A stretch of 64,000 nucleotides of DNA from Escherichia coli. GTDB taxonomy: Bacteria > Pseudomonadota > Gammaproteobacteria > Enterobacterales > Enterobacteriaceae. The position numbers and the translations under genes are program-made. The stretch is taken from assembly GCF_036507355.1 (NCBI RefSeq), contig NZ_AP027878.1. One strand, written 5' to 3'. Each line of letters begins with the position of its first letter. The first letter of the stretch is position 1. A model generated the notes under the pieces. The model was not told the DNA's origin. It ran no database searches and saw only the letters and a program-made list of their open reading frames with translations. Positions 25,375 to 42,916 of this stretch are shown here, one piece after another.

Positions 25375-28287
25375 ATGTCAAAAGGGTTCACATTCGAAAA
25401 GAACTTACCGCATCAGAAAGCAGGTGTCGATGCGGTGATGAACGTTTTTGTTTCCGCGACATCTCATCAGGAGGATAATGTTTCTATTCGCCTGTTAGTT
25501 AATCCAGAATTACGGCTTACTGAACAGCAATACTATAAAAATATAAAAAAAGTTCAGGAACTCAATGGTATTGAACATGTAAAAAATAATTACGATGCTA
25601 GAAGCAACGTAATTGATGTTTCTATGGAGACAGGTACAGGTAAAACGTATACCTACACTAAAACAATTTTTGATCTGAACAAATCATTTGGCATTAATAA
25701 GTTTATCATTATTGTTCCTACTCTATCGATCAAAGCTGGAACAGTGAACTTTTTGAAAAGCGATGCGTTAAAAGAACACTTTAGAGATGATTATGAGCGT
25801 GAAATAAAGACTTACGTTGTTGAAAGTCAGAAAAATGCCGGTAAAAGCACAAAATCGTATATGCCTCAAGCTATACATGATTTTGTTGAAGCTAGTAATT
25901 TCAATAAGAAATATATACACGTTCTTGTTATTAACACGGGAATGATTCACTCTAAGAATTTAAATTCCACTTATGATGTTGGCTTGCTTGACAATCATTT
26001 TGATTCTCCCTTTTCAGCTCTTGGTGCGGTAAAACCATTCATTATCATTGATGAACCACATAAATTTCCTACTGGTAAAAAGACATGGGAAAATATAGAG
26101 AAGTTTAATGCTCAATATATTATCCGCTACGGTGCGACCTTTAGTGAAGGCTATAAGAATTTAGTTTATCGACTTACAGCTGTGGATGCATTTAATGAAG
26201 ACCTTGTTAAAGGTATTGATGCGTACATTGAGGATATTGTTGGTGATGGTGACGCCAACCTAAAGTTCATTAAATCTGATGGGGAAGAAGTTACATTTGA
26301 GCTAAATGAAAATAACAAGAAAACTTTATTTAAGTTAACAAAAGGTGAATCTCTATCTAAGACACATAGTGCTATTCACGATTTAACTCTTGATGCCTTA
26401 GGCAAGAATACAGTAGTGTTGAGTAATGGTATTGAGCTAAAAATTGGTTGCTCAATAAACCCCTATTCTTACGATCAGACACTTGCTGACAGCATGATGA
26501 GGAAAGCTATCAAAGAACACTTTAAGTTAGAAAAAGAGTTTCTGACACAAAGGCCACGCATAAAGCCTCTTACTCTTTTCTTTATTGATGATATTGAAGG
26601 TTATCGTGACGGTAATAATATTGCCGGAAGTTTGAAAGCTAAGTTCGAAGAATATGTTTTGGCAGAAGCTAATGAACTGTTAAAAATAGAAAAAGATGAG
26701 TTTTATAGTAACTATCTTGAAAAAACAGTTAAAGATATATCTTCCGTTCATGGCGGTTATTTTTCAAAAGATAACAGTGATAAGGATGATAAAATCGAGA
26801 AGGAAATCAACGAAATCCTTCATGACAAAGAGCTTTTGCTGTCTTTAGATAATCCACGTCGTTTCATTTTCTCCAAATGGACGTTGCGTGAGGGATGGGA
26901 TAATCCTAATGTCTTTCAGATCTGTAAGCTCCGTTCGAGCGGTAGTACCACATCCAAGCTTCAAGAGGTAGGGCGCGGTTTGCGTCTTCCTGTGAATGAA
27001 TACATGTGTCGAGTGAAAGACCGCAATTTTACCCTTAAATATTATGTCGATTTTACAGAAAAGGATTTTGTTGACTCACTTGTTAAAGAGGTCAATGAGA
27101 GTTCTTTCAAAGAAAGGGTTCCAAGTAAGTTTACTCAAGAGCTTAAGGAACAAATCAGGGCTCAGTATCCTGAGCTTTCATCCAGAGCACTAATGAATGA
27201 ACTTTTCAATGATGAAATCATTGATGACAATGATAATTTCAAAGATTCAGATGCCTACAGCCGCTTAAAATCCAAATATCCAGCAGCATTCCCTATAGGA
27301 GTGAAACCAGGTAAAATCAAAAAAGCTACTGATGGAAAAAGACGCACTAAAATGCGTGTTGGTAAGTTCAGTGAGCTGAAAGAACTATGGGAATTAATCA
27401 ATCAAAAAGCGGTGATTGAGTACAAAATAAACAGTGAAAATGAGTTTTTATCCATTTTCAAGTCATTCATGCTCGAAGAAACAGAACGATTTACCAAATC
27501 AGGCGTTCATACTCGCATTGATAAAATTTACATCCACAATGATATGGCAATGTCGAAAAGCATTGTTAGTGATGACGATGACTTTGCTAAGCTAAACACA
27601 ATGAGTTATCGAGAGTTTCTCGATAACTTATCACAGACTATTTTTGTTAAACACGATACTTTACATAAAGTTTTTTGTGATATAAAAGACACTATTAATA
27701 TCACTGAATACCTGAATATTCAAACAATCAGAAAAATTAAATCTGGTTTTAGTAAGTATTTGTTGAACAATTCGTTTAATAAATTCAGCCTCGGATATAA
27801 TTTGATTTCGGGTTCAATTCATCCCACAAAGTTCACAAATGCTGATGGTAAGCCTCTAGACGAGGTATTATCAAGTGATCTTGGTGTATTACAGGATAAT
27901 TCAAAAGCACCATTAGATACTTATCTTTTTGAAGAAGTTTTTTATGATTCAGAGCTTGAAAGGCGTAATATAACAGATAGAGAGATCCAGTCTGTTGTTG
28001 TTTTTTCAAAGATACCGAAGAATTCTATTAAGATCCCGGTAGCTGGTGGATACACTTACTCACCCGATTTTGCTTATGTTGTAAAAACAGCAGAAGGTGA
28101 TTATCTTAACTTTATCATTGAAACAAAAAACGTAGATAGTAAGGATAGTTTACGGCTTGAAGAAAAAAAGAAAATTGAACATGCCCAGGCGCTTTTCAAT
28201 CAAATAAGTCAGTCTGTTAAAGTTGAATTCAAAACGCAGTTTGCTAATGATGATATTTATCAGTTAATCAAGAGCGCATTACCATAA
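25375..28287 (+). CDS. res: Type III restriction endonuclease Res (EcoP1I-like)
   Basis: 970 aa; METGTGKTYTY Walker A, IIIDEPHKF DEPH box. Confidence 0.85.
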   Translation: MSKGFTFEKNLPHQKAGVDAVMNVFVSATSHQEDNVSIRLLVNPELRLTEQQYYKNIKKVQELNGIEHVKNNYDARSNVIDVSMETGTGKTYTYTKTIFDLNKSFGINKFIIIVPTLSIKAGTVNFLKSDALKEHFRDDYEREIKTYVVESQKNAGKSTKSYMPQAIHDFVEASNFNKKYIHVLVINTGMIHSKNLNSTYDVGLLDNHFDSPFSALGAVKPFIIIDEPHKFPTGKKTWENIEKFNAQYIIRYGATFSEGYKNLVYRLTAVDAFNEDLVKGIDAYIEDIVGDGDANLKFIKSDGEEVTFELNENNKKTLFKLTKGESLSKTHSAIHDLTLDALGKNTVVLSNGIELKIGCSINPYSYDQTLADSMMRKAIKEHFKLEKEFLTQRPRIKPLTLFFIDDIEGYRDGNNIAGSLKAKFEEYVLAEANELLKIEKDEFYSNYLEKTVKDISSVHGGYFSKDNSDKDDKIEKEINEILHDKELLLSLDNPRRFIFSKWTLREGWDNPNVFQICKLRSSGSTTSKLQEVGRGLRLPVNEYMCRVKDRNFTLKYYVDFTEKDFVDSLVKEVNESSFKERVPSKFTQELKEQIRAQYPELSSRALMNELFNDEIIDDNDNFKDSDAYSRLKSKYPAAFPIGVKPGKIKKATDGKRRTKMRVGKFSELKELWELINQKAVIEYKINSENEFLSIFKSFMLEETERFTKSGVHTRIDKIYIHNDMAMSKSIVSDDDDFAKLNTMSYREFLDNLSQTIFVKHDTLHKVFCDIKDTINITEYLNIQTIRKIKSGFSKYLLNNSFNKFSLGYNLISGSIHPTKFTNADGKPLDEVLSSDLGVLQDNSKAPLDTYLFEEVFYDSELERRNITDREIQSVVVFSKIPKNSIKIPVAGGYTYSPDFAYVVKTAEGDYLNFIIETKNVDSKDSLRLEEKKKIEHAQALFNQISQSVKVEFKTQFANDDIYQLIKSALP

Positions 28288-28296
28288 TTCCAGTTT

Positions 28297-28321
28297 AAAA
28301 GGAGGTGAAAACCTCCTTTTT
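28297..28321. terminator. Intrinsic terminator after res
   Basis: AAAAGGAGGT-GAAA-ACCTCCTTTT hairpin with T run. Confidence 0.7.
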
Positions 28322-28362
28322 ATGACATCCAACACGACCTGAAAGAAGTGGCGCTCAGGTCG

Positions 28363-29004
28363 TTAAAAATAGTTTCCCTTTCCAGTTAAGATTCCATGTG
28401 GAACGCTTTTTTCCGCAAGTCTCTGTGTGCCGCGAATTATGTTAATCAGTGGGCTTAGTAACGATGGTTCCTGGCGTGGCTCAACTTCTCCAGCCATTGC
28501 CCTGATGTAGTCGGAGTTTGCAACGTTGTTGTATTCCGTTGCGAAGCAGCATAACAACGTCAGAACGTGCTCTGTCGTTATTTCGCTCCAGTTGATGTTG
28601 AAAAATTCATCGCCTTTTTTGTCATGTTCGGAATCGAAGATGCTTTGGTGGAGGATGTATTTGCCGGATTCCTTGCGCGGTAACTTGATCGCTTTCTGGC
28701 GTTCTAATTCCTTGTAAATCTGCATTGCTTCAATCAGTACCGGTCTACCGTTCATGAAGGGATCACGCAACCTTACACGCTGGCCAACTCGTCCAGTAAT
28801 AAAGCTGTTTTCCTCTTCCACCAGCACGATAAAACCCTTTTCCTCTTTTTCTCGCAATTCGCGCAGCAGCTGGAGTTCCATATCGCGGCGGCGTTCAGGG
28901 TAGCTGGTCCGCTCAGCCATTATCAGCTCGTTATTGATCCATGCAGCAGTCATTGACGCCGGTTTGCCGACGCTCATCGAAACAACGCATATTTTCTTAT
29001 CCAT
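28363..29004 (-). CDS. mat: Mat-like protein (particle maturation), hypothetical
   Basis: 213 aa from ATG 29004 (MDKKICVV...) with AGGGGG RBS; track ORF extends to 29151. Confidence 0.45.
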   Translation of the reverse strand: MDKKICVVSMSVGKPASMTAAWINNELIMAERTSYPERRRDMELQLLRELREKEEKGFIVLVEEENSFITGRVGQRVRLRDPFMNGRPVLIEAMQIYKELERQKAIKLPRKESGKYILHQSIFDSEHDKKGDEFFNINWSEITTEHVLTLLCCFATEYNNVANSDYIRAMAGEVEPRQEPSLLSPLINIIRGTQRLAEKSVPHGILTGKGNYF

Positions 29005-29193
29005 AGCGCCCCCTACAAAAAAGAAAAGCCACCAGCGGCGGCTTAGCAATACAACTGAAGGTAGCGCCCGGTACTCAGACTGTGCCGTCCATGGAATATT
29101 TGAAAAGGGATCCATCCGTACCGGGCGTGTGATGATTCTGACTGAAGTCACTTGTCAGTTGTCAATCATTTATCATTAAAAATAATATATTTA

Positions 29194-29754
29194 TTAGTGC
29201 ATGATGTTTGCCATCTCATAGGCGTCAGCCAGTAACTCCATCTCTGACTTGTTCAGCAAGGTGAATTCTTTCTTGCCTCCAACCACACCATCGGCATGAA
29301 CAGGGACCAGCCATGGGTATTTTTCTCTTACTTCAGCCGGAGCTGCATGCTGGTGGTGCCATCTACAAAGTGGCAATTGCTTTTTATGACAACCCGGCGC
29401 GGTACGACCGGCGATATGGTGCAGAGACACCTCATTAGATATTACTCCATGCATATAGCAGGCAATGCAGGGGAGAGCGCCAAGAGCATTGGCGATGCGC
29501 CGTTCCTCCGCCGTTGGTGTTCTCCCCTTCAAGCCACGAGATTTTATTTTTACCGCGCTTTTCCGCGTTTTGCTGGCTGGTGGGCGCTCTTTCTGTTTAG
29601 CGATACGGCGGTCGAGAGTATCCCGCATTTTCTGATATTGAGATTCTCGCCAGACCGGATCAGCCAACTTCTCCCGTTGCCGAGCGATCGCTCGTTCTCT
29701 GGCTGCCTTCTGCCACTTGCGGCACTGTTCAATTTTTTGTTCGATTGTTTTCAT
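29194..29754 (-). CDS. ref: Ref, HNH endonuclease (recombination enhancement function)
   Basis: 186 aa from MKTIEQKIEQ...; C-terminal CIACYMHG...HHIAGR...CRWHHQ HNH motif. Confidence 0.8.
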   Translation of the reverse strand: MKTIEQKIEQCRKWQKAARERAIARQREKLADPVWRESQYQKMRDTLDRRIAKQKERPPASKTRKSAVKIKSRGLKGRTPTAEERRIANALGALPCIACYMHGVISNEVSLHHIAGRTAPGCHKKQLPLCRWHHQHAAPAEVREKYPWLVPVHADGVVGGKKEFTLLNKSEMELLADAYEMANIMH

Positions 29755-29852
29755 ATGGCAAAAAAAAGGCGGCCTAATGGCCGCCAATGATGTCAAGGAG
29801 TGAAGTAATGGCAACGTCTTCGTAGTTGACAAAAACTGCGGCTCAATTATAG

Positions 29853-29869
29853 CAATCAATTAGAGCAAT
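29853..29869. promoter_or_regulatory. C1 operator-like site upstream of ref
   Basis: CAATCAATTAGAGCAAT (3 mismatches to consensus) with a second partial copy just upstream. Confidence 0.45.
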
Positions 29870-29975
29870 GATAGATATTTTGTTTATCGCGAATCACATT
29901 TTTTCACTTCAGTACCTGTGTGCTATACTCCTTCTTGATTGATTGGATGCGGAATACAAACCCGCTCTTTTGTGC

Positions 29976-30004
29976 AGCCTGGCTCCTTGCCAGGCTTTTT
30001 TTTA
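29976..30004 (+). terminator. Plus-strand intrinsic terminator abutting cra stop
   Basis: AGCCTGGC-TCCTT-GCCAGGCT followed by eight T on the plus strand only. Confidence 0.55.
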
Positions 30005-30313
30005 TTTCATCATGGAAGCTGTTAACGCTTTGGACCTTGCTGAACTGATTGAAAGGACATTGTTAACCTTACCCAAGAGTTCGCCAAACTCAGACATCAC
30101 TTTAGCAAAACCGCGCCGTGCTTCTTCCTCGGTGGCATTCATCACGAAATGTTCAGCACTACGCATACTTTTGACAGGAAACGCAACGGATATTGAGTCA
30201 ATATCAGGCATTCTATCGCTCAGCTTTACAGTGACAATGACGGCTGGCGACTGAATATTAGTGCTTACAGACAGCACTACATATTTTCCGTCGATGTTGA
30301 AATCCTTTCTCAT
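30002..30313 (-). CDS. cra: Cra (cre-associated function)
   Basis: 103-aa ORF between ref and cre with GGTGA RBS; position as in P1. Confidence 0.55.
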   Translation of the reverse strand: MRKDFNIDGKYVVLSVSTNIQSPAVIVTVKLSDRMPDIDSISVAFPVKSMRSAEHFVMNATEEEARRGFAKVMSEFGELLGKVNNVLSISSARSKALTASMMK

Positions 30314-30363
30314 ATGTCACCATAAATATCAAATAATTATAGCAATCATTTACGCGTTAATGG

Positions 30364-31395
30364 CTAATCGCCATCTTCCAGCAGGCGCACCATTGCCCCT
30401 GTTTCACTATCCAGGTTACGGATATAGTTCATGACAATATTTACATTGGTCCAGCCACCAGCTTGCATGATCTCCGGTATTGAAACTCCAGCGCGGGCCA
30501 TATCTCGCGCGGCTCCGACACGGGCACTGTGTCCAGACCAGGCCAGGTATCTCTGACCAGAGTCATCCTTAGCGCCGTAAATCAATCGATGAGTTGCTTC
30601 AAAAATCCCTTCCAGGGCGCGAGTTGATAGCTGGCTGGTGGCAGATGGCGCGGCAACACCATTTTTTCTGACCCGGCAAAACAGGTAGTTATTCGGATCA
30701 TCAGCTACACCAGAGACGGAAATCCATCGCTCGACCAGTTTAGTTACCCCCAGGCTAAGTGCCTTCTCTACACCTGCGGTGCTAACCAGCGTTTTCGTTC
30801 TGCCAATATGGATTAACATTCTCCCACCGTCAGTACGTGAGATATCTTTAACCCTGATCCTGGCAATTTCGGCTATACGTAACAGGGTGTTATAAGCAAT
30901 CCCCAGAAATGCCAGATTACGTATATCCTGGCAGCGATCGCTATTTTCCATGAGTGAACGAACCTGGTCGAAATCAGTGCGTTCGAACGCTAGAGCCTGT
31001 TTTGCACGTTCACCGGCATCAACGTTTTCTTTTCGGATCCGCCGCATAACCAGTGAAACAGCATTGCTGTCACTTGGTCGTGGCAGCCCGGACCGACGAT
31101 GAAGCATGTTTAGCTGGCCCAAATGTTGCTGGATAGTTTTTACTGCCAGACCGCGCGCCTGAAGATATAGAAGATAATCGCGAACATCTTCAGGTTCTGC
31201 GGGAAACCATTTCCGGTTATTCAACTTGCACCATGCCGCCCACGACCGGCAAACGGACAGAAGCATTTTCCAGGTATGCTCAGAAAACGCCTGGCGATCC
31301 CTGAACATGTCCATCAGGTTCTTGCGAACCTCATCACTCGTTGCATCGACCGGTAATGCAGGCAAATTTTGGTGTACGGTCAGTAAATTGGACAT
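30364..31395 (-). CDS. cre: Cre tyrosine site-specific recombinase
   Basis: 343 aa MSNLLTVHQNLPALPVDATSDEVRKNLMDMFRDRQAFSEHTWKMLLSVCRSWAAWCKLNNRKWFPAEPEDVRDYLLYLQARGLAVKTIQQHLGQLNMLHRRSGLPRPSDSNAVSLVMRRIRKENVDAGERAKQALAFERTDFDQVRSLMENSDRCQDIRNLAFLGIAYNTLLRIAEIARIRVKDISRTDGGRMLIHIGRTKTLVSTAGVEKALSLGVTKLVERWISVSGVADDPNNYLFCRVRKNGVAAPSATSQLSTRALEGIFEATHRLIYGAKDDSGQRYLAWSGHSARVGAARDMARAGVSIPEIMQAGGWTNVNIVMNYIRNLDSETGAMVRLLEDGD, recognised as P1 Cre. Confidence 0.95.
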   Translation of the reverse strand: MSNLLTVHQNLPALPVDATSDEVRKNLMDMFRDRQAFSEHTWKMLLSVCRSWAAWCKLNNRKWFPAEPEDVRDYLLYLQARGLAVKTIQQHLGQLNMLHRRSGLPRPSDSNAVSLVMRRIRKENVDAGERAKQALAFERTDFDQVRSLMENSDRCQDIRNLAFLGIAYNTLLRIAEIARIRVKDISRTDGGRMLIHIGRTKTLVSTAGVEKALSLGVTKLVERWISVSGVADDPNNYLFCRVRKNGVAAPSATSQLSTRALEGIFEATHRLIYGAKDDSGQRYLAWSGHSARVGAARDMARAGVSIPEIMQAGGWTNVNIVMNYIRNLDSETGAMVRLLEDGD

Positions 31396-31402
31396 TTAAC
31401 AC

Positions 31403-31624
31403 TCAGATAATGGTTTTAAGTAAAGTGTACAGGATCGGCTCTGCCTTTACCTGTTTATGGTTCTCGTCATAGAAACGCCAGCGACCGCGCGTGCGTTCTA
31501 TTTTCTCTTCACCGCGCGATAATGACAGTTGGCAACTATCACGATCAAACCCTTTTGCCCGCCAGTAACCACGGTTTTTCTCAAGCTCAAGATGAGTGGA
31601 CACTTTAGCAGTTGAATATCCCAT
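31403..31624 (-). CDS. Small ORF in the loxP-cre leader (73 aa), hypothetical
   Basis: GAGGTG RBS 4 nt before ATG; ends 8 bp before cre start; preceded by the recurrent motif. Confidence 0.3.
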   Translation of the reverse strand: MGYSTAKVSTHLELEKNRGYWRAKGFDRDSCQLSLSRGEEKIERTRGRWRFYDENHKQVKAEPILYTLLKTII

Positions 31625-31813
31625 TTTTCACCTCTGATTGATTGGTGGTGCTAAGTGCGCTACGCGAAATCTGTAGGACTAACACCGCCAATTTTTCACA
31701 GATTTTACGTAGCGCAACCTTGATCAAATGATCAAGTGGTCACTATTTGACCTGCTAAGGTATTGAACTGTATGGATTTACAGGTAAATTGATCATATTC
31801 AATAACCCTTAAT

Positions 31814-31847
31814 ATAACTTCGTATAATGTATGCTATACGAAGTTAT
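31814..31847. other. loxP: loxP recombination site
   Basis: Exact ATAACTTCGTATA-ATGTATGC-TATACGAAGTTAT. Confidence 0.97.
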
Positions 31848-31880
31848 TAGGTCTGAAGAGGAGTTTACGTCCAGCTGCGC

Positions 31881-31897
31881 ATAAAAATCAAGAATTA
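31881..31897. promoter_or_regulatory. C1 operator (immC array)
   Basis: AGAATTATTAGAGCAAT, 2 mismatches to reverse-complement consensus. Confidence 0.6.
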
Positions 31898-31973
31898 TTA
31901 GAGCAATAAATTTTGAGAGAAAAATCCAACTCCACCAGCCAAAAACTGGATTGTTTTTCATAGTTGTTTGACA

Positions 31974-31990
31974 ATTGCTCTAATAAATTA
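31974..31990. promoter_or_regulatory. C1 operator overlapping a TTGACA -35 element
   Basis: ATTGCTCTAATAAATTA, one mismatch; TTGACA at 31969-31974. Confidence 0.65.
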
Positions 31991-32228
31991 TAGTTTTGCC
32001 GCCGTTTCGTAATACGACTTTGGATTCACTATTTAATGTGTCTTCAGCGTTGTAGAGCGGCTCAGAAGGAAATGAGCAAACAGGGAAACCTTATACAACG
32101 GCATTACAGCTATGCATTGCTCATCTTACACACAGCGCAATGTTGTTAGATTACCCCAGCATGGATCATGGGTGAAACAGTAGGTCAGAGCTTCAGGCTC
32201 TGTGTTGTCAATACAGTGAGGCATAATT

Positions 32229-41408: not shown

Positions 41409-42142
41409 CGAACTATCCGGAATGTCCGGATAGTTGCCAGCCTCGTAACCCAGGGATTAGCACTCCAGCTTTCTTCGCCGTAGATGGATTCCCACAGGCG
41501 CTGGAACGCAACCTTGGCCATTGCGAAATCCCCCTTGGGAGTAAGGAATGTTCCCGGGTGATCAGGAAGCAAACTTCCAGCAGGCGGAACGCCCTCATCC
41601 CTTGCATCGCATTCGCTGATATCGTTCAACCGTTCAACGCGCACGTTGGTAATTTCCAACAGAATGCGTGATGCCCATCGCGGCATGTGAATTGATGGAC
41701 GCCACCCACCATCAAACTTTTCATTCACAGTGTGAGGTTTCCAGTCGGCATCATCGGGTATCGACCATAAGCCGTAATCACCAGGTTTTTGCTCGCAACT
41801 GGCCCGATAAATCCTTGCTGCGTTCTTCTCATCGCCACGACAAAGGTTGTCGTTCCAGTCCACACTGCAACCATCCTCATTGCCTAATATCGCCCATGTT
41901 TCACGAACCCAAATTCGATCGCCGACGATACCAAATGGGCAATTGAAAACACTGCTTACACCATCAGCCCCGTACCACTGAAAACCTGCACCAATTTTTC
42001 TAACCATCACTGGTGCTTCTGGACCAACTTCCGCAGGCTGATTTTTCATTATCCGCCGCGTCTGCGTTTTCCTTCCTTCGAGGATGGCCCGGACCATCTC
42101 ATCGTTGAAAATCATGCCGCGCTCTTTCACTTCGCCTTTCAT
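41213..42142 (-). CDS. ASCH-like domain protein (C-terminal third uncertain)
   Basis: 309-aa ORF; N-terminus FNDEMVRAILEGRKTQTRR and ...NPWV resemble ASCH/PUA-like proteins; tail beyond NPWV overlaps next ORF. Confidence 0.45.
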   Translation of the reverse strand: MKGEVKERGMIFNDEMVRAILEGRKTQTRRIMKNQPAEVGPEAPVMVRKIGAGFQWYGADGVSSVFNCPFGIVGDRIWVRETWAILGNEDGCSVDWNDNLCRGDEKNAARIYRASCEQKPGDYGLWSIPDDADWKPHTVNEKFDGGWRPSIHMPRWASRILLEITNVRVERLNDISECDARDEGVPPAGSLLPDHPGTFLTPKGDFAMAKVAFQRLWESIYGEESWSANPWVTRLATIRTFRIVRCQRKERASPVNVSELSRMFIANWLTASTIQRSSVLAPSNYEKELAVFWATLLRQIIINKPRKVT

Positions 42143-42151
42143 GCATCCCCC

Positions 42152-42238
42152 TTACCCATGCGCGACGATGCCGCCAAAAGTGATAGAGAACAGCCAGAAA
42201 TAGATCGCGGCCATAATGATTTTGAATGCCGTGTTCAT
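42152..42238 (-). CDS. Tiny hydrophobic peptide (28 aa) translationally coupled to the ASCH-like gene
   Basis: CAGGAG RBS, MNTAFKIIMAAIYFWLFSITFGGIVAHG; its stop is followed by a GGGGGA Shine-Dalgarno that serves the ASCH-like start. Confidence 0.3.
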   Translation of the reverse strand: MNTAFKIIMAAIYFWLFSITFGGIVAHG

Positions 42239-42320
42239 ATTTTCAGCTCCTGTGATTGATTGGAAACATGCCGCGCCTTGCGGCATGTTTTTATTTTCAC
42301 TTTCTCTGTTTTAAAAATCA

Positions 42321-42337
42321 AGATTTATTAGAGCAAT
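42321..42337. promoter_or_regulatory. C1 operator upstream of the ASCH operon
   Basis: AGATTTATTAGAGCAAT, one mismatch. Confidence 0.65.
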
Positions 42338-42843
42338 TATTGTTGATGAAGAAGCGCATTTTCATACTCCCTGACCATTAACGTAAGCACGCCGTGCCTC
42401 CTGAAAACACGCGCCACTTCAATCTTATCTTCCAGCGCGAACGCGATTTTACTTAGACCAATTTTCTTAAGGAGATCAATCTTTGCTGGGCCGTCATTTC
42501 TGTCATCTGTGGCAGGACGCATAGATAGCAAAGGCTCAGCCCCGTTTGTTACGTACTTCCGCAGCCAGGCTCGTGTTTTATCCCTTGCGATCTCACAGCG
42601 CCCGGTTACAAACCAGACCGTGTAAACGTTAAATAACTGGCGCACCATATCAATAACTGGAGTGATGGGAGTATCGGTGTCACAGGCGAGATTAAACTCG
42701 TTCCAGTCCTTTGTTAATGCACCTTTACCTGGTGGCGGAAGCAAATGCAGTCTGTCTTCAGTTGCCTCTGATATTGTTCCATCAATATCGACTATGACGA
42801 TATACGGACGTTCCTGGTGTGCGTGTTTATTGAAAATACTCAA
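42337..42843 (-). CDS. HAD-superfamily phosphatase-like protein
   Basis: 168 aa; IVDIDGT motif I near N-terminus. Confidence 0.55.
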   Translation of the reverse strand: MSIFNKHAHQERPYIVIVDIDGTISEATEDRLHLLPPPGKGALTKDWNEFNLACDTDTPITPVIDMVRQLFNVYTVWFVTGRCEIARDKTRAWLRKYVTNGAEPLLSMRPATDDRNDGPAKIDLLKKIGLSKIAFALEDKIEVARVFRRHGVLTLMVREYENALLHQQ

Positions 42844-42916
42844 ATGCCCTCCTCATTGGACGAAAAAAATGCTGGTGGGACGCACTCCACCAGCATTAAA
42901 AGTGACACTGTAACTA

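Follow-up and report, generated by a model that had tools for sequence, protein, structure and literature searches.

A window of 64,000 nucleotides from Escherichia coli (contig NZ_AP027878.1 of assembly GCF_036507355.1) was analyzed around the junction of the c8 and ref genes of a P1-type phage-plasmid. Positions 29937-30003 on the plus strand of this window are probably an independent gene for a 67-nt regulatory small RNA (sRNA) of P1-like phage-plasmids, which would be constitutive, would act in trans by seed pairing and would also be antisense to read-through transcripts of c8. A preliminary description had proposed a plus-strand RNA of about 70 nt that runs from an extended −10 element to a T tract and starts at a recurrent motif, and such an RNA is supported by conservation, covariation and strand-specific signatures in the sequence. 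The gene abutting it had been given as cra; in GenBank it is c8, and cra lies upstream of cre. The naming of c8 and cra is inconsistent between databases (at least one further record, JL22, labels the c8 open reading frame (ORF) as "cra"). Phage P1 (AF234172/NC_005856) is a 100% match to window positions 29700-30400 in reverse complement (P1 record position = 31831 − window position within this region). The P1 GenBank record contains no annotation on the plus strand of the c8-ref spacer, and the only RNA regulators annotated in AF234172 are C4 and the kilA antisense promoter.

Promoter, terminator and fold of the predicted RNA

The extended −10 element TGCTATACT (TG-C-TATACT) named in the preliminary description was recovered by a pattern scan at positions 29921-29929 of the plus strand (9/12 matches with the TG extension), preceded on the same strand at a 17-nt spacer by a weak −35-like hexamer (TTTTCA, 29901-29906). 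A discriminator of 7 nt (CCTTCTT, 29930-29936, plus strand) leads from the −10 element to the start at G29937, which is predicted from promoter geometry. Variation was assessed in 62 distinct P1-like sequences spanning 29762-30313, derived from 80 IMG/VR loci collected through the C8 protein and several plasmid loci. The TATACT hexamer is invariant (62/62) and the TG is kept in 60 of the 62, while the −35-like hexamer varies at four of its six columns and the discriminator at five of its seven. The same geometry is found in two distant clades, represented by the Cronobacter phage JK004 and a Salmonella arizonae plasmid, in which TGATATACT lies at the identical 7-nt distance from GATTGATTGG; the sequence upstream is unrelated, no −35 element is present at the corresponding position, and the discriminator reads CATTCGC or CATCCGC. 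The unconserved −35 region fits an extended −10 promoter that works without the need for a −35 element. At the level of sequence, the predicted RNA appears to have a promoter of its own.

The C1 operator Oref (29853-29869), which GenBank places within the minus-strand promoter feature P2ref (29846-29874), is located near ref as the preliminary description had it. P2ref is divergent from the sRNA promoter, and Oref ends 32 bp upstream of the −35-like hexamer, outside the sRNA promoter, so that control of that promoter by C1 is not expected. Two other readings of the −10 region were rejected. A degenerate C1 operator at positions 29919-29935 would match about 9 of 17 positions by eye (judged against the 17-bp operator consensus ATTGCTCTAATAAATTT), and a vestigial minus-strand Shine-Dalgarno (SD) sequence (AAGGAG, the complement of CTCCTT) is contradicted by bases that vary among the P1-like sequences and differ between clades, with no start codon after them. 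Two P1-like loci (L059 and L114) carry a Tn21/Tn1721-type terminal inverted repeat (…CCGTTTTCTGAGACGACCCC) inserted at the position equivalent to 29912/29913; the insertion removes the −35-like hexamer and leaves the extended −10 element and the RNA intact.

The pattern scan also identified an intrinsic terminator at positions 29976-30003 of the plus strand, with an 8-bp stem, a 5-nt loop and a tail of seven U. The hairpin (29976-29996) reads AGCCTGGC-TCCTT-GCCAGGCT and contains eight pairs, six of them G-C, in agreement with the GC-rich 8-bp stem described earlier; the eight T of that description are seven T directly 3′ of the hairpin (29997-30003) and an eighth that closes the stem. The tail overlaps the c8 stop codon (30002-30004). 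The sequence next to the hairpin in the minus-strand direction is GCACAAAAGAG, so that the terminator is expected to work on the plus strand only, and a pattern scan of a 3-kb region listed no minus-strand terminator at the end of c8; the earlier claim of a plus-strand-only terminator holds. Since c8 lacks a terminator on its sense strand, read-through is expected, and the transcripts that result would be complementary to the whole of the sRNA.

The resulting RNA of 67 nt begins with a 5′-terminal seed, GAUUGAUUGG, that comprises its first ten nucleotides (29937-29946, plus strand). The seed leads into stem-loop 1 (29945-29968, plus strand), predicted to contain the pairs G9·U32, G10-C31 and A11-U30, a bulged U12 and a GCGG/CCGC helix. 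A common fold is predicted for all variants and consists of 7-8 unpaired 5′ nucleotides, stem-loop 1, a linker of 6-7 nt, the 8-bp terminator and the U tail. Because the base of stem-loop 1 uses G9 and G10, nucleotides 1-7 or 1-8 of the seed are single-stranded in every predicted fold. The z-score of a 71-nt fold was −3.0. Counts of promoter-like sites (7 versus 3.9±1.9 expected from shuffled sequences) and terminator-like sites (5 versus 3.1±1.9) in the 3-kb region were not significant. On a single sequence the signals are therefore weak, and it is comparison between sequences that makes them convincing as predictions.

A coding function of the plus strand was rejected, since the only ORFs (starting at GTG 29920 and TTG 29943) run through the terminator, and a small plus-strand protein is excluded by RNA lengths of 67, 68 and 71 nt across the clades, which break any reading frame. 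A cmscan of positions 28000-32000 against Rfam returned no match above threshold; the sub-threshold matches were driven by the terminator (e.g., SorX with 22.6 bits), and neither C4 nor OmrA-B appeared at E≤10. No paralogous module was found in the window with blastn (word size 7) apart from the 10-12-mer motif described below.

Conservation, covariation and candidate targets

About 700 plasmids of PLSDB and 20 phage records contain the locus. Among the 62 P1-like sequences, the mean minor-allele fraction was 0.012 for positions 29930-29975 and 0.025 for the hairpin (29976-29996), compared with about 0.078 in the adjacent spacer (29846-29900), 0.125 at third codon positions of c8 and 0.010 at second codon positions of c8. 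The diversity of positions 29930-29996 is as low as that of the c8 second codon positions. Nucleotides 1-9 of the RNA (GATTGATTG) are invariant in all 62 sequences and nucleotide 10 varies in three; the terminator stem is likewise invariant and variation in the hairpin falls on loop positions. Column by column, the pattern of variation is that of a predicted promoter followed by a predicted RNA. The RNA block is also kept where its surroundings have changed: a convergent KilAC antirepressor gene replaces ref in Escherichia albertii and E. coli plasmids (L002-L004), and transposon remnants replace the ref side in a further locus (L005).

A tblastn search with C8 led to the JK004 and S. arizonae sequences introduced above, two distant groups in which the protein is about 50% identical. 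On the strand opposite c8, both contain in the same order TGATATACT, 7 nt, GATTGATTGG, a stem-loop unrelated in sequence, the sequence (A/G)UGUGC and a terminator (AGCCCGGC-GAAA-GCUGGGCU followed by a T-rich tail). A small hydrophobic ORF lies between c8 and the module in these genomes, and the start of another gene is found about 45 nt past the −10 element; the module is thus kept in a gene context that differs from that of P1. All three clades have an identical seed, and stem-loop 1 differs in sequence but retains its position and shape. RNAalifold on a MAFFT alignment gave 12 pairs, four of them with compensatory double changes, and a manual structural alignment gave six pairs with such changes, including CG/UA/GC and GC/AU/CG in stem-loop 1. 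Within the terminator, comparison of the clades shows U-A replaced by C-G at pair 5 and G-C replaced by G·U at pair 6; the latter reads A·C on the other strand. Pairs were canonical in 242 of 256 cells on the plus strand and in 223 of 256 on the opposite strand, a difference caused by G·U pairs, one of which is fixed in both distant clades. The T tract is restricted to the RNA strand in all clades. An intrinsic terminator on the RNA strand is thus indicated by the sequence, with covariation and the G·U pairs in support. A reading of the hairpin as a protective 3′ structure only, which the preliminary description had allowed for, leaves the plus-strand T tract, the G·U pairs and the conserved −10 element unexplained.

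A covariance model detected one strong copy per genome (94.6 bits in the window, 69.1 in JK004 and 55.6 in the arizonae plasmid), with every other match below 18 bits. BLAST with the JK004 version of the module returned five Salmonella plasmids and JK004 itself only. A metagenome scan with a stricter pattern gave 12 loci, two of them real family members, and a scan of viral contigs added one further variant of the arizonae type. The pattern applied to genome contigs (GATTGATTGG-N15-40-GTGCAGCC) was too loose and gave chance matches; among the matches listed, one E. coli locus was obviously related by organism. In these searches the family appears to be limited to the three clades.

The exact complement of the seed, CCAATCAATC, occurs five times in the P1 window, six times in JK004 and four times in the arizonae plasmid. 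Dinucleotide shuffles contained about 0.25 copies of the seed-complement 10-mer per genome and two at the maximum. All copies but one lie on the gene-sense strand near an SD sequence or an ATG. Three of the copies in the window are candidate target sites that carry CCAAUCAAUC on the minus strand: one in the leader of the cra-cre operon (31636-31645), 11 nt before the cra ATG; one before a small ORF ahead of pmgT (42254-42263), 2 nt before the SD sequence and 15 nt before the ATG; and one within pmgS (44150-44159) at nucleotides +21 to +30 (codons 7-10). When the orthologous sites of the three clades were compared, the motif was identical at 10/10 positions in the cre-operon leader (5′ flank 2/40, 3′ flank 3/40), at 9/10 before the small ORF (2/40 and 10/40) and at 10/10 in pmgS (21/40 and 18/40), where the bases of the motif are kept even at codons with a changed residue (N/S-Q-S-I). 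The three sites are islands of identity within diverged flanks. The predicted +1 position is the exact limit of the conserved complementarity; a purine always follows the motif, with no other constraint on that base. Two properties by which an sRNA may be recognized thus appear to be present, a conserved seed that is predicted to be accessible and, in unlinked mRNAs, complementary sites that are likewise conserved and lie at translation-initiation regions.

The small ORF ahead of pmgT (42152-42238, minus strand) is absent from the GenBank annotation and would encode a hydrophobic peptide of 28 amino acids, MNTAFKIIMAAIYFWLFSITFGGIVAHG. It lies between the C1 operator OpmgT/Op88 and pmgT, so that its candidate site is also downstream of this operator, and homologous N-termini are found in JK004 (53 amino acids) and in the arizonae plasmid (46 amino acids). 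A 5′ hairpin and the CCAATCAATC motif precede the ORF. Further sites in JK004 lie before a 52-amino-acid protein with a predicted membrane segment and directly before the ATG of the ref homolog (L310, 42392-42401; homolog assigned by Pfam RecA_dep_nuc). In P1, ref contains an imperfect match to the seed complement after its ATG (7/8 positions, codons 2-4). An attenuator-like terminator is located directly before ref in all three clades, and JK004 alone has CCAATCAATC between the T tract and the ATG.

Proposed mechanism and alternative readings

According to the favored reading, RNA polymerase would start at G29937, 7 nt after the conserved extended −10 element (TGnTATACT), and would terminate beside the c8 stop codon, at the hairpin with its U tract. 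The promoter, which reads divergently from P2ref, is not overlapped by a C1 operator, so that the RNA is probably made in lysogens too. The 5′ end of this RNA (GAUUGAUUGG) would be single-stranded, with one variable stem-loop behind it and a short linker between that stem-loop and the terminator. As a seed, the 5′ end would pair with CCAAUCAAUC sites that several phage mRNAs carry within or beside their ribosome-binding regions. The putative targets in P1 are the cra-cre leader, the small membrane-peptide ORF ahead of pmgT and pmgS, to which JK004 would add further sites including ref. Pairing beside ribosome-binding sites suggests repression: translation, mRNA stability or both would be lowered, and leaky or early expression, of the cre operon as well as of operons that are mostly under C1 control, would have to pass a threshold. 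As the predicted RNA is perfectly complementary to c8 read-through RNA, a cis-antisense effect on these transcripts, or titration of the sRNA by them, is also likely from the sequence.

A wider role can be put forward tentatively, and it is more doubtful than the existence of the sRNA gene. The RNA might be a second immunity-type regulator of P1, a constitutive RNA that restrains the cre operon, possibly toxic small membrane peptides, the pmgR/S and pmgT operons and, in some relatives, ref. Read-through from cre and c8 would titrate the RNA and close a feedback loop, and the RNA, not the adjacent ORF, might account for the "establishment of lysogeny" phenotype assigned to c8.

Several observations weigh against the favored reading. 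Transcription of the locus is inferred from sequence and comparison, and one published study of P1 by RNA-seq used an unstranded kit. Literature searches, which covered the motif, P1 sRNAs and P1 transcriptomes, returned no description of this RNA or of the motif, though an earlier P1 transcript map is possible. The region is dispensable for plaque formation (PMC10695390). The covariation comes from three independent clades only, so that two or three events underlie each covarying pair. In a hybridization-energy scan the three P1 sites ranked 3rd, 4th and 12th of about 16,000 windows, and with a seed of 10 nt energy alone does not single out the sites. The candidate ref was rejected as a conserved target, as the exact site is present in JK004 only and the arizonae plasmid has none. 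The E. albertii plasmid plas2 (L329, 2168-2177) carries the seed GAUUGAUUGU, in which G10 is changed to U and the G10-C31 pair is also broken, and its cra-leader site is unchanged, so that this variant is uninformative on covariation between seed and target. A sense-strand hairpin lies just 5′ of the motif in several target leaders, as it does at the sRNA locus. Finally, the copy of the motif within the sRNA gene is bound to be complementary to the others, and a protein that reads the motif on mRNA would produce the same recurrence.

Four other explanations were considered. The RNA might be real but act in cis only, by pairing or colliding with c8 read-through toward Oref and ref and thereby uncoupling ref from cre and c8, in which case the recurrence of the motif would have another cause. 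This was judged unlikely. The absence of a sense-strand terminator after c8 and the full complementarity of the read-through RNA agree with such a role, as does the position of the RNA in JK004 and the arizonae plasmid, where it is antisense to the 5′ untranslated region of the next gene. In addition, ref is harmful to lysogens and is guarded in several layers, by C1 and H-NS (PMC4713147) and by an attenuator, which the pattern scan used here detected. However, the downstream partner is not conserved (ref in P1, the convergent KilAC gene in L002-L004, gene_57 in JK004), and cis-antisense pairing needs no particular sequence, yet conservation within the RNA is highest in the ten 5′ bases, and their exact complement is conserved in three clades at three unlinked loci in the translation-initiation regions of other operons. 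The complementarity at the c8-ref junction that the preliminary description emphasized is therefore retained, and its purely cis emphasis is probably too narrow.

A second explanation, the main rival and considered quite improbable, is that no functional sRNA exists and that CCAAUCAAUC is a sense-strand leader element read by a protein (e.g., a RegA-like translational repressor or a nuclease), with fortuitous resemblances to a promoter and a terminator on the antisense strand; the c8-ref spacer would then contain one further copy of the element, with hairpins before it as in other leaders. The order hairpin, motif, SD sequence and ATG is found in the sense direction at P1 42263, at JK004 70427 and 64816 and at arizonae 35227, and the motif copy at the sRNA locus is followed after 40-45 nt by the start of a gene in JK004 and the arizonae plasmid. 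A protein-read motif leaves unexplained a set of features that belong to the antisense strand: an invariant TGnTATACT that all three clades have at a distance of exactly 7 nt from the motif and that is absent from the other copies of the motif; the T tract, conserved on that strand only; and the G·U pairs, which are A·C on the sense strand and one of which is fixed in two clades. The block is moreover strongly constrained in P1 though no ORF follows the motif there.

The hairpin and T tract might alternatively serve only as a plus-strand terminator or insulator that stops transcription arriving from the ref side, with no dedicated short RNA. They are the next plus-strand terminator after the plus-strand gene that ends near 29762 in L002-L004, and a 10/12 promoter-like site abuts the C1 operator Omat on the plus strand (29159-29186). 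An insulator leaves the conserved −10 element, the seed and stem-loop 1 upstream of the terminator unexplained, and in JK004 and the arizonae plasmid the module is present without a convergent gene before it, which makes this explanation very unlikely. A chance coincidence of promoter-like and terminator-like patterns in an AT-rich spacer would agree with single-sequence counts that do not exceed shuffled expectation and is so strongly disfavored as to be hardly credible, given a module that is conserved and covaries in three clades, a single strong covariance-model match per genome and an enriched motif.

Related systems and neighboring features

Geneticists have relied on phage P1 for about 70 years, in transduction, Cre-lox recombination and P1-derived artificial chromosome (PAC) vectors. 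In E. coli and Salmonella, resistance genes are now commonly carried by P1-like phage-plasmids. If the favored reading is true, this classic model of phage genetics may possess a second, previously unannotated RNA regulator, and a post-transcriptional layer would be added to the circuitry of lysis and lysogeny, including the leader of the cre operon and operons controlled by C1. Genes without an assigned function (cra, pmgS, pmgT and the new small membrane peptide) would gain a shared regulatory handle, and the candidate sites would make up a compact, testable phage sRNA regulon defined purely by comparative genomics.

The known P1 regulator C4 is excised from the very transcript under its control and uses two loop elements to act on a single operon. 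The C4 antisense RNA (immI of P1 and P7, Rfam C4 family, annotated as misc_RNA in AF234172) has a length of about 77 nt. As is proposed for the predicted RNA, it is a P1-encoded RNA that pairs through short blocks beside a ribosome-binding site (a2/b2 before icd-ant), thereby represses translation and backs up C1 immunity. In contrast to C4, the predicted RNA would have its own promoter and terminator, a 5′-terminal seed and candidate sites in at least three operons. These features agree with enterobacterial trans-acting sRNAs of the OmrA/OmrB and RybB type, with which the predicted RNA would share a single-stranded conserved 5′ end, a variable stem-loop, a terminator with a long U tail and several targets at or near the ribosome-binding site; the predicted RNA differs in that it has no covariance-model similarity to OmrA-B (RF00079), is phage-borne and has phage genes as candidate targets. 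By analogy, the predicted RNA would resemble OmrA/B and RybB in its working and C4 in its role. Nucleotides 10-18 of OmrA (AUUGAUUGG; E. coli K-12 omrA, L328, 503-590) are identical to nucleotides 2-10 of the predicted RNA (window 29938-29946), and the cra leader would offer 11 contiguous pairs to OmrA. This identity of 9 nt may be a coincidence.

Temperate phages are known to encode other small RNAs that act by base pairing, such as DicF, svsR of NC-SV (PMC12803456) and the prophage sRNAs of enterohaemorrhagic E. coli. These belong to lambdoid or defective prophages and have mostly host targets, whereas the predicted RNA lies in a P1-type plasmid-prophage and has its candidate sites in that phage's own operons. 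A likeness to the trans-encoded type I antitoxin sRNAs (IstR-1/tisB, OhsC/shoB) is that two of the candidate targets, the 28-amino-acid ORF and JK004 gene_104, are small hydrophobic peptides, but the other candidate targets (cra-cre and pmgS) are not toxins and the complementarity extends over 10 nt only. The PaskilA antisense RNA of P1 (AF234172) is similarly transcribed as an antisense RNA from a σ70 promoter inside another transcription unit; it differs in being cis-antisense to the 5′ region of kilA, with no seed or regulon described.

The genes around the predicted RNA are annotated in GenBank on the minus strand. From upstream to downstream these are cra (31403-31624), located upstream of cre, cre itself (30364-31395), the 103-amino-acid ORF c8 (30002-30313; putative establishment of lysogeny), the promoter P1ref (29787-29814) and ref (29194-29754). 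The window is derived from a different isolate than AF234172, with 99.06% identity over pmgQ-pmgT (window 41430-44631), and its bases 1 to about 130 are not collinear with positions 31700-31830 of the record (cin region).

The minus-strand cassette between c8 and ref (29760-29874) contains P2ref, Oref, a leader and an attenuator, the last as a terminator (29785-29768) with T8 directly before the ref ATG. It is kept in the P1-like plasmids in which the KilAC antirepressor gene replaces ref (L002-L004). The cassette could itself yield a C1-controlled RNA of about 80 nt; in Rfam it gave only a sub-threshold match. A second copy of AATTATAGCAATCA, designated repeat D1, is located at 30335-30352, about 20 nt upstream of the c8 ATG. 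On the minus strand this copy reads GATTGCTATAATTATTTG, which is a perfect extended −10 element and also resembles a C1 operator (about 13 of 17 positions by eye); GenBank places Pc8 at 30406-30437 and not at the D1 copy. The promoter-like site next to Omat reads TTGTCA-16-AATAAT (10/12 positions) and ends exactly where this plus-oriented operator begins (feature span 29159-29203). A transcript from this site would be controlled by C1, would run antisense through the whole of ref and would stop at the terminator near 30003.

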